64,000 nucleotides of DNA. It comes from Monosiga brevicollis MX1 (taxonomy: Eukaryota). A program made the translations under genes and the position numbers. Under the pieces are notes generated by a model. It searched no databases. It saw only the letters and a program-made list of their open reading frames with translations, and was not told where the DNA came from. This document shows positions 37,799 to 40,938 of the stretch, piece by piece. Each line of letters starts with the position of its first letter. Position 1 is the first letter of the stretch. The DNA is taken from contig NW_001865049.1 of the NCBI RefSeq assembly GCF_000002865.3, forward strand, positions 316,331-380,330. Direction: 5' to 3'.

Positions 37799-40700
37799 AT
37801 GAAGGCCGCTGCCGGGATGGCTGGCCAGCCTTTGAGCCCGCGCAAGGCCTCGCCGCACGCAACGTCTCCAAGCATGGCCGACGCAACACCACGTCGACGT
37901 CGCGTCCTCCCCACCATCAATGCGGCTGTATTAGCGTCCCGCAATCCCGTGCGGTATGCGCCCGCCTGCAAGACAACCGCACTCGCGTGGGAAAGAAAGC
38001 TGATCCTGTGTGTAGCGATGGTGCATCTGGTCCCTTATTGCCTGCGTCTGCTGTTTGGGTAGCGGTGATCCGCGCTTGGGTCGAGGCTTGCCAACTCCAG
38101 AGCATCCTCGCCATGCGGCTTGCCTTAAAGTGCTAGCCTTGCTTGAGCTCTATGCTTTTCGCCTTGCTGCTATTGATGTACGTGCGCGCGCATGAGTGTG
38201 TGTGTGTGTGTGTGTGTGTGTGTGTGTGTGTGTGTGTGTGTGTGTGTGTGTGTGTGTGTGTGTGTGTGTGTGTGTGTGTGTGTGTGTGTGTGTGTGTGTG
38301 TGTGTGTGTGTGTGTGTGTGTGTGTGTGTGTGTGTGTGTGTGTGTGTGTGTGTGTGTGATAACCCTTGGGGCACTAGTTTTGGGCACCATCAAAGAGCCT
38401 CTTGGTGACGACATTACTCACCGTCGATCTGCGCCTTCATGCTTGGATAATGCCGCCATCCGCGGGCGCCGGCTTGCTTCGTCAGCGTTACGTGGCCAAT
38501 CTACAGCTTCAAGAGGTGAGCTGTCACGCCACACAACTAGGTTAACCAACACCAACGCTCACTAATGTTGACCACGCCGGTATCGATGTAGGCAACCATG
38601 ACCAGCTTGCTGGTTCCTGACCCCATCATCTTTGACATTACCCAGGACCTGTGTCAAAGGCACCAGCAAGCACTTCACGTATGCCTCATGCTCTGAATCC
38701 GCCCAACCCCCGAGCACCCTGAGGCAACCTGAGGCACCCCTGGCCTCTGATTCACCGTTTGCAAGCAGTTGTCACTCACGCAGTCCTCTGTCTCGGCTCT
38801 GTAGCTGTTGACGAACCGACTGGCTCACCACCGCCACGATACCGTATTCTGCGATCTGATCGCACGGCTCGATGGTGCCCAGGACACTGTCAGTGCTTAG
38901 ATCCAGATCAAGCATTCGCTCGCCCGTCTCGCTTCAGCCGAGTAGGATGGCCTCTCTCTCTTTTGACTTTCTACCTCTGGTTGCCTTTGGATAGGCATCA
39001 TTTTCAGAGACTCATCTGGCATATGTGCGAGGCATGGATGGGCTCTTGGGCGCTCTGGCAAGCCTGTGCGTTAGGATTGTCGCGTCATTTGTCACCCCGC
39101 CCCTTTATCCTTGGCCACAGTCCTTACCCATCGTTTAATCGCATGGTATTTCAGAGAGCGTGACGATCGGGCCATGGCCGTTGTGCAGGACACAGAGGAC
39201 CATCTAGCTCGCCAATTTCAAGAGCTTCCTTCCTCATTCCACGCCGCGGCAGCTCGCCCGACTCCAGATCTTGGATTTGCCGCTTGTGTTGTGGCGCCAG
39301 CCGGCATCCTTGCTGCGTGCGTCAATCAAATGGCCGCACCTTGCTGCTTGCTATTGCAACCCTTGGCCATCGTGTTGCTCACCAATTTCGATTGTTCCTT
39401 GATCCTTTGTTCTCAGTTTAATGACCACCTGTGAAGTCCTTCTGGCTGCCACGCCTGAGGAGCACCCCGATGCCGTCCTGCTACCGCGGGCTCTTCTTCA
39501 ATTGCAGGATCTTGCTGCTCGCGCCCAGGTCACAAAAGACACAGTCCTCAAGTCGGGACCAGGCCGGCGTGACTCCGACGCCCCCCTGCCAAAGAATGCT
39601 TCGTGGCATCAGCGCTCCCACTCGGTTGACCTGCCGTCCGCCACCTTTGGATATCCCACACGCTCCTTTTCGGGTCGTCGCGGGTATGTTCAAATTCAAA
39701 CCTATGGCAAGCGCCCACGAATAAGTTGAAGCGATGGAGCGATGGTAGACCAAGTCTTGGCTTGACCTGCCTTTTCTGTGAAATTGGTTTAGATCTTCTC
39801 GATCAGGCTCGCGCACCGATTCCTTCATCAGTGCCACCAGCGGTGACCTAGACGCTGATTCCTCGCCCGTCGTCTCGCGGGCCATCCCGCTGGACCTGCC
39901 ACCGCTTGACCAACCGCTTTCCTTAAATGCCGGTGCCACACAAATGCATGACATGGAACCGGATTCTGCCCCAATGGATCCTACCGTACCCCTTCGACCG
40001 CGGCGCGCTGCTGGTGATTCCGCGGATCGTCGCTCCTGGTCTAATTGGTTCAGGCGTGGAAAGGTGCGTTGGACGCCACACCGCATGCAGTTTGCGCAAC
40101 AGCTGTTGCAGCAGCAGCATGACTGCGCACATGTCTTGGGGTCTGCAACCACGCCTCGCATCCCTTCATCCTCATTTGTGCCGTCCTTAAATGCATTGTC
40201 ACTTGGGTATAGCGAGCCAGCTTGGGGGCTGACAAAGCGGACATCGGTGGCCCCGTGGGGTTTGCCCATGTAGTGCACATGGGCCCCGATGCGGTCGTGC
40301 TGGGTGATCTTACGGCCTCGGCCAAGCATGAGCTGGAGGCACGGACAAGCCAGGGCCCGGGCCAGGGCCGGGGCGTGCTTGGTCGTACGGGCTCTCCTCA
40401 CGGTCGCCGTGGTGATGGCCGATTACCACGACGCAACAGCAGTGAGTCTCGCCTCCCACGGCAGAACAGCGCAGACGGTCGGATGCCACGTCGGAATAGC
40501 GGGCCTGCTCGGCCGGCGTCCATTTCAAGCAGCCTAGTCTCCGGCCCTTCTGGATTTCAACACGTTACTCACGTGAGTGGGGATACCACGCATCGTCAGC
40601 CCACGAGCTCTGGCTCATTGATTCACCTGACCACTGCTGACCTTGCCGCGGCGCCGCCACAACGCGCCTCGCGGCTGATCAACGGAGGGTTGGCCTCGCT

Positions 40701-40938
40701 CGATCTGTCCCGATCATCATTCGAAACCGCTGCACTTACAGGCGTGGCCGCGGCTTCCGATCGTCAGAATGATGAGGTCGTCACCAATGCCGGCATGCCG
40801 CCTCCTCCATTGAGCATCCCTCCGACTTTTCCAACGACTCATTCTGTGTCGACAAGGCCTGATGCCCTCACCGGCCCTGGCTATCCACACATTCCAGGCC
40901 GTGAGGATGCTGACGATCTTGATGCTGCCCTCGTCTAA
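37799..40938 (+). CDS. Degenerate Dbl-homology (DH/RhoGEF-like) domain protein with two CRIB motifs and no PH domain, multi-exon
   Basis: Phase-consistent splicing gives RHAACLKVLALLELYAFRLAAID|RYVANLQ...PIIFDITQDLCQRH...LLTNRL...VFCDLI...FSETHLAYVRG...VVAPAGILAALMTTCEVLLAATPEEHPDAVLLPRALLQL. CRIBs: DIGGPVGFAHVVHMG and LVSGPSGFQHVTHVS. Confidence 0.7.
38196..38358. repeat. Intronic (GT)n microsatellite, about 160 bp
   Basis: Directly visible. Confidence 0.97.

Follow-up and report, generated by a model that had tools for sequence, protein, structure and literature searches.

What does a domain that activates Rho GTPases do in a protein that seems to have lost the means to activate them? DH domains activate Rho GTPases and CRIB motifs recognise the active form, and both are encoded by one gene on the forward strand of a 64,000-nucleotide stretch of the choanoflagellate Monosiga brevicollis MX1 (contig NW_001865049.1, positions 316,331 to 380,330; hereafter the window), which a sequence-only reading had described as a pseudo-RhoGEF with tandem CRIB motifs. 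The gene model comprised 655 residues in ten coding exons (Table 1). Profile comparison identifies its N-terminal part as a genuine, if highly diverged, DH domain of ~200 residues, helical in type and predicted to be catalytically dead, and its last exon holds two CRIB motifs predicted to bind active Cdc42 or Rac. A Rho activator has likely been converted into a reader of the same switch. The gene is expressed and is conserved in at least two choanoflagellate lineages.

The DH and CRIB exons had been joined by hand, and assembled contigs showed whether they share a transcript. Four sequencing runs (X1, X3, X6 and X10, with X3 and X6 from the same study) were placed on 38362-41300. X3 and X6 each yielded one contig with seven GT..AG joints that spans 38486-41164 and ends in a poly(A) tail; the genome sequence past 41164 is not A-rich. 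X1 covered the whole stretch unspliced and X10 its 3' part, also unspliced. That X3 and X6 are RNA is a guess, though their contigs are spliced and tailed, and a contig is not a single molecule. From 38486 onward the hand-spliced gene was borne out, with the reading frame open over every joint and the DH and CRIB exons together in a single contig that is spliced and carries a poly(A) tail. The two parts also lie in one open reading frame (ORF) in a relative from Choanoeca flexa, which speaks against separate transcripts. The loose 5' end of both contigs matched an exon ending at 38177, and intron 1 and the letters of exon 2 upstream of 38148 lay outside the RNA-shown part. Among 34 candidates for intron 1 that kept the frame, only 37954-38062, whose donor resembles the proven donors, places the end of the 388 letters that X3 carries further upstream at a strong acceptor in the 5' untranslated region (UTR), at 37681 (272+115+1); from these splice signals and the contig-length arithmetic we infer that it is intron 1. 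An upstream ORF of 8 codons (37733-37759) lies in the putative 5' UTR and stops 40 bases 5' of the main ATG.

Homology to DH domains was assessed against a reference set built in three steps. First, metagenome contigs were scanned for a motif, which occurred in 119 matches, and 15 of them had long open frames. Next, three of the 15 were omitted (two showing apparent intron read-through and one carrying a long insertion), and the other 12 were aligned and confirmed as RhoGEF. Finally, a search with this alignment returned 120 listed proteins of 491 and yielded 124 full DH domains. The spliced DH segment scored 21.6 bits against a first profile and 19.6 bits against a second, where the best of 2,000 shuffles reached 6.9 and 3.9, respectively, and hhalign gave the window DH 91.9% against no more than 0.5% for 30 shuffles (top lines shown). 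With the C. flexa relative above the Pfam RhoGEF cut-off, the proposed DH homology holds. No single exon scored with Pfam RhoGEF (nine of the ten exons scanned, the 10-residue exon 3 left out), and the start of exon 8 matched only the NET1 DH among structures, weakly (E 0.25). Among 45 columns conserved in at least 70% of references, the retained core positions included R68, Y82, L86, F114, L128, L131, Y167, P229, T247, H251, D253 and L257. The conserved regions that had been read by eye were present: CR1 as KVLALLELY (38127-38153), gapless in the alignment and the best of 316 stop-free upstream windows; CR3 as APAGILAAL, spanning the joint of exons 7 and 8 (39294-39420); and the retained TPEEHPD (39451-39471). 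A CR1 register further downstream was ruled out by the alignment, and a stretch of the 5' UTR resembling the CR1 of the relative scored lower and had no GT donor behind it. Just before CR1, a heptapeptide at 38094-38114 resembles the TPEEHPD of the other end of the domain, probably by chance. Neither exon 10 nor the start of exon 8 found a match in word-based protein searches, which is weak evidence, and the exon 8 piece had no usable match in the Atlas.

A HMMER search with exon 10 over 1.84 billion representatives returned five hits at E 0.001, one of which is a relative by architecture: P0124, an unnamed transcriptome protein of 600 residues from C. flexa (EukProt EP00730 P014463). It was colinear with the window protein over ~500 residues (25% identity, E 3e-23), was the best match of the window DH among 125 proteins, and carried Pfam RhoGEF (44 bits, above the cut-off) and PBD and nothing else. 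Both proteins have an N-terminal degenerate DH, a low-complexity linker, two CRIBs and no PH domain. The architecture of the sequence-only reading stood, although that reading had noted neither P0124 nor the conservation that follows each CRIB. P0124 is less diverged than the window protein, passing Pfam RhoGEF and retaining the second CR1 Glu (E48). Of the remaining four hits, none of them a relative by architecture, one is a fish phosphatase and three are crustacean proteins with several CRIBs; the latter (P0122, P0123 and P0125) are uncharacterised decapod proteins that contain 4-7 CRIB repeats and in which no further Pfam domain passes the cut-off. No relative was found in metagenome contigs, the Atlas returned only generic RhoGEF clusters under 0.9 for P0124, and motif scans of viral contigs gave five chance matches in one and none in the other. 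Modelled with a DH alignment, P0124 adopted a DH fold at residues 31-230, with the remainder unresolved, and matched intersectin, p115 and P-Rex1 at Z 22-23, but since the alignment guided the model it is not independent evidence of the fold; single-sequence folding was uninformative (mean pLDDT 38, no match at E 0.001). In trees using 50 of the 124 references, the two proteins joined at support 80 and each alone joined another long branch. Because long branches spoiled the trees and only three of the ten window exons matched P0124 above all shuffles on their own (exon 10 being the best-conserved part), orthology rests on colinearity and architecture, and neither orthology nor subfamily is shown by the tree.

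The case for lost catalysis comes from the residues that face the GTPase. DH-GTPase contacts are named in the AKAP-Lbc-RhoA structure (PMC4232260; papers are cited here by PMC number from excerpts of their text), and were mapped onto both proteins by spacing, which makes the following correspondences presumptive. Given as window/C. flexa, the CR1 switch-I Glu (E2005) became K74/A43 and the Thr at i+4 (T2009) L78/L47; in CR3, the Gln (Q2152) became G231/D185, the Lys/Arg at Gln+4 (K2156) A235/D189, and the hydrophobic V2159 and L2160 T238/E192 and T239/C193; and the helix-6 Asn position (D2193) became Q272/S226. P0124 has thus lost the same five positions (CR1 Glu and Thr, CR3 Gln and Lys/Arg, helix-6 Asn). 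In the references, CR1 had E in 123/124 and T/S in 122/124, and helix 6 had N in 109/124 and D in 12/124; across four CR1 and helix-6 positions, at most one differed in 122 of 124 references, compared with four in the window protein and three in C. flexa. The CR1 Glu and helix-6 Asn are presumably also the two residues changed in a dead P-Rex2. The claim that GTPase contacts are lost was thereby upheld for CR1 and CR3 and extended to the relative, and amended for the terminal Asn, which had been called absent and whose position holds Gln. Of the conserved columns, none of the nine contacts was retained in P0124, compared with 20 of the 35 others (p 0.002). Both the CR1 Glu and the CR3 Lys are important for catalysis, the Bcr DH that lacks them has no measured exchange, and six other Dbl members also lack key residues (PMC5727386, in the excerpt available). 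The window protein shares with Bcr-type pseudo-GEFs the combination of DH homology and lost catalytic contacts, and its DH is predicted to be catalytically dead. Three of the 124 references were also degenerate, in P0015 (from 1081), P0010 (from 1108) and P0017 (from 596), the first of which also has a RhoGAP domain.

Both CRIB motifs proposed downstream of the DH were found. The CRIB consensus is I/V-S-x-P-x2-4-F-x-H-x-x-H-V, from which CRIB1 departs at two positions, the S being replaced by G and the final V by M; the pattern matched twice in each relative and in none of 20,000 shuffles of the last exon. Pfam PBD scored 24 bits on exon 10 for both stretches together (cut-off 21.3), with CRIB2 the best stretch, and the best PDB sequence match of both was the WASP GTPase-binding domain (E 0.0068 for CRIB1 and 0.083 for CRIB2), within matches of E 0.007-0.15 that are weak. 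The extension behind CRIB1 matched P0124 better than all of 2,000 shuffles, and three of 2,000 scored as high as the stretch behind CRIB2. A basic stretch before the CRIB has a role in WASP-Cdc42 steering (PMC8305018), and one precedes CRIB1 here too. Cdc42 and Rac are listed for two choanoflagellates in the Dbl survey of Fort and Blangy (PMC5499878). The tail is low in order-promoting residues. In Dbl-family RhoGEFs a PH domain next to the DH is usual, not universal, and its absence had been noted from the sequence; consistent with this, Pfam gave no hit in exons 8-9, only PBD in exon 10 and no PH in P0124, and a profile of 114 post-DH segments reported neither tail. No output domain (kinase, WH1, WH2/VCA, GAP) was found by Pfam in nine of the ten exons or in P0124.

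Several points weigh against reading the protein as an adaptor with a dead DH. The reference DH set was seeded on the CR3 motif, so CR3 conservation and frequencies are inflated. For the window protein alone, the concentration of losses on contacts was not significant (one of nine retained against 16 of 35 others, p 0.12); hand-picked contacts gave 0/11 against 17/33 (p 0.003), with a set chosen after alignment and not blind. K74, L78 and L79 sit just beyond the RNA-shown letters. A single relative, P0124, was found, and the DH domains of the two are ~22% identical, no higher than the best canonical DH match (0.217). The hydropathy of the former GTPase face averaged 1.1 in the window protein and -0.9 in C. 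flexa (references: median -1.9, maximum 0.5); as the rebuilt face is hydrophobic here and polar in C. flexa, no shared new partner can be claimed for it.

On balance, the protein is probably an adaptor, recruited by Cdc42/Rac-GTP through its CRIBs and offering its predicted-dead DH as a protein-binding platform. By analogy with known families, each CRIB, with the basic stretch before CRIB1 and the conserved extension behind, would bind the GTP form of Cdc42 (WASP-like) or of Rac, and two CRIBs on a flexible linker could confer avidity for membrane patches of active GTPase. The DH would still fold without being able to catalyse exchange, and might dock a partner protein and carry it to those patches. 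A bolder version, which we regard as quite unlikely, is a one-chain coincidence detector, in which two unlike CRIBs read two GTPases (e.g., Cdc42 and Rac) and the remodelled DH face passes the signal to a new partner, an activator-to-effector conversion in a choanoflagellate family; if true, it would be a building block of cell polarity without known counterpart in animals. The missing output domain would also suit a buffer or competitive inhibitor, whose CRIBs sequester Cdc42/Rac-GTP and so keep it away from PAK or WASP, with the DH a stable relic or oligomerisation anchor that recruits no partner. The fast evolution of the DH (very long branches) beside the best-conserved CRIB exon points the same way, but two distant relatives retain the core and length of a 200-residue domain, beyond the need of a pure sink, and we consider this reading unlikely.

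Of the explanations that leave the DH in touch with a GTPase, one makes it a third binding site that holds the GTP form without catalysis. It has precedents in the DH of Fus2p, which binds GTP-bound Cdc42p (PMC4751553), and in the DH/PH of alsin, which binds Rac1 but shows low GEF activity in cells (PMC8773251); against these stand a switch I/II contact face that is nearly all replaced, differently in both relatives, and the very weak binding by the similarly altered DH of Bcr (PMC5727386), which make a third site distinctly improbable. The other, an atypical active GEF that CRIBs recruit to active Cdc42 so that the DH loads more, would put the GEF-PAK positive feedback of yeast polarity in one chain. 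GEF-plus-effector complexes do drive that feedback (PMC7002011), the size and, by prediction, the fold of the DH are retained, and single contacts can be dispensable, as in AKAP-Lbc R2163A (PMC4232260). Yet all five key positions have changed in each of the two relatives, in part with reversal of charge (K74; D189), and two point changes were enough to kill P-Rex2 (PMC12325715); an active enzyme is very improbable. That the gene is a decaying transcribed duplicate with no selected function is highly improbable. In favour of decay, divergence is greater in the window protein than in P0124, and GC at synonymous sites is 0.52 for the DH part and 0.67 for five exon pieces of the adjacent Sec1 gene. 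On the other side, no stop interrupts the 655 codons (chance ~4e-11 given the composition of introns, with 20 and 30 stops in the two other frames), splicing is clean and the transcript polyadenylated, and the architecture recurs in another genus. The same build and the same five losses in P0124 argue for a conserved choanoflagellate gene type and not a decaying copy.

Pseudo-GEFs (Bcr, obscurin, alsin and Fus2p) and CRIB effectors are already known, and their combination appears to be undescribed, in that we found no description of it in the literature searched. The Bcr 'pseudo-GEF' of Bcr-Abl p210 has a DH fold, altered contacts and no measured exchange (PMC5727386), as predicted here, and the obscurin DH is a milder case, with altered contacts (7 of 30 contact residues differ) and no measured exchange (PMC10118190). 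In both, as far as the excerpts extend, the DH is followed by a PH domain and no CRIBs are described, whereas the window protein has CRIBs and no PH. Alsin retains Rac1 binding with its low activity (PMC8773251), and Fus2p uses its Dbl-homology domain to bind GTP-bound Cdc42p, which it localises rather than activates (PMC4751553). The predicted role of the window protein resembles that of Fus2p as a Dbl-homology protein acting downstream of Cdc42-GTP, but Fus2p binds through the DH and has an amphiphysin-like domain, whereas the binding sites predicted here are separate CRIBs. The GTPase-binding domains of WASP, N-WASP and PAK1 (PDB 1cee, 8s5t, 1ees) share the CRIB motif with its upstream basic stretch; here, two CRIBs are joined to a DH, with no WH1, WH2 or kinase by Pfam. 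The best solved match of P0124 was the DH of intersectin, a Cdc42 GEF (PDB 1ki1, 3qbv; sequence E 5e-4, model Z 23), but intersectin has an active DH-PH and outscores the other DH domains only narrowly (several come within 1 Z), and descent from it is not shown.

No DH-plus-CRIB protein appeared among the listed titles and abstract starts of the part of the literature searched, which held few subscription papers, and such proteins may exist elsewhere in databases; a match for 'two CRIB' concerned PLD2, which has no DH (PMC3520882). The accessible main and supplement text of the Fort and Blangy survey, whose domain figures lie outside the text, contained neither 'CRIB' nor 'PBD', and its choanoflagellate RhoGEF rows all carry animal subfamily names (PMC5499878). 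None of the 120 reference DH proteins, a set chosen for canonical DH, had a CRIB by pattern or a listed PBD. DH surveys would miss such genes since no single exon scores with Pfam RhoGEF, and the two word-based searches did not return the protein. Choanoflagellates are the closest single-celled relatives of animals and Cdc42/Rac signalling is little studied in them; a dead DH with two CRIBs in two of them would offer a clear example from nature of an enzyme that became an adaptor within the pathway it once served.

Table 1. Features of the DH-CRIB gene, in window coordinates (aa, amino acids)
Feature	Position	Strand	Evidence
Putative short non-coding exon, end 37560, then intron 37561-37681		+	Splice signals, length arithmetic
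Exon 1 (putative): 5' UTR, ATG 37799, aa 1-52	37682..37953	+	Splice signals, length arithmetic
Exon 2: DH helix 1, CR1 start (R68, K74, L78, L79, Y82, L86)	38063..38177	+	3' 30 letters and donor: RNA loose end; 5' boundary predicted
Predicted pseudo-DH domain, aa 68-275, exons 2-8	38109..39537	+	Profiles, shuffles, hhalign, alignment
(GT)n microsatellite within intron 2 (38178-38485)	38196..38358	.	Sequence
Exon 3, aa 91-100	38486..38515	+	RNA contigs X3, X6
Exon 4, aa 101-129	38592..38678	+	RNA contigs
Exon 5, aa 130-157	38805..38888	+	RNA contigs; matches P0124 98-122, 0/300 shuffles as high
Exon 6, aa 158-181	38995..39065	+	RNA contigs
Exon 7: degenerate CR3 (P229 retained; G231, I232, A234, A235)	39155..39316	+	RNA contigs, alignment
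Exon 8: CR3 end, TPEEHPD, helix 6 with Q272 for Asn, start of low-complexity linker	39417..39683	+	RNA contigs, alignment
Exon 9: Ser/Pro-rich linker, basic stretch at end right before CRIB1	39793..40063	+	RNA contigs
Exon 10: CRIB1 and CRIB2, tail, stop codon 40936-40938, 3' UTR, poly(A) site 41164	40213..41164	+	RNA contigs
CRIB1 (aa 425-437, 40243-40281) with conserved 21-residue extension (aa 439-459)	40243..40347	+	
CRIB2 (aa 523-535, 40537-40575) with conserved stretch aa 549-583	40537..40719	+	

The window is eukaryotic (~55% GC, short introns, dinucleotide repeats), with small shares in two marine metatranscriptomes and an assembly gap of 520 N at 17945-18464. Directly upstream of the DH-CRIB gene, at ~33400-36983 on the forward strand, lies an intron-rich Sec1-family gene, four of whose five exon pieces matched PF00995 and which we take to be SLY1-like. 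Between the two genes, on the reverse strand, is a tRNA-Arg(TCT), the only tRNA found in the window; an AT-rich stretch adjoining it likely holds the promoter. Downstream, a convergent reverse-strand gene (41762-42268) had a weak aldo-keto reductase match (17.9 bits, below the cut-off) broken by a Ser/Pro/Thr-rich stretch, and is possibly a diverged member of that family.
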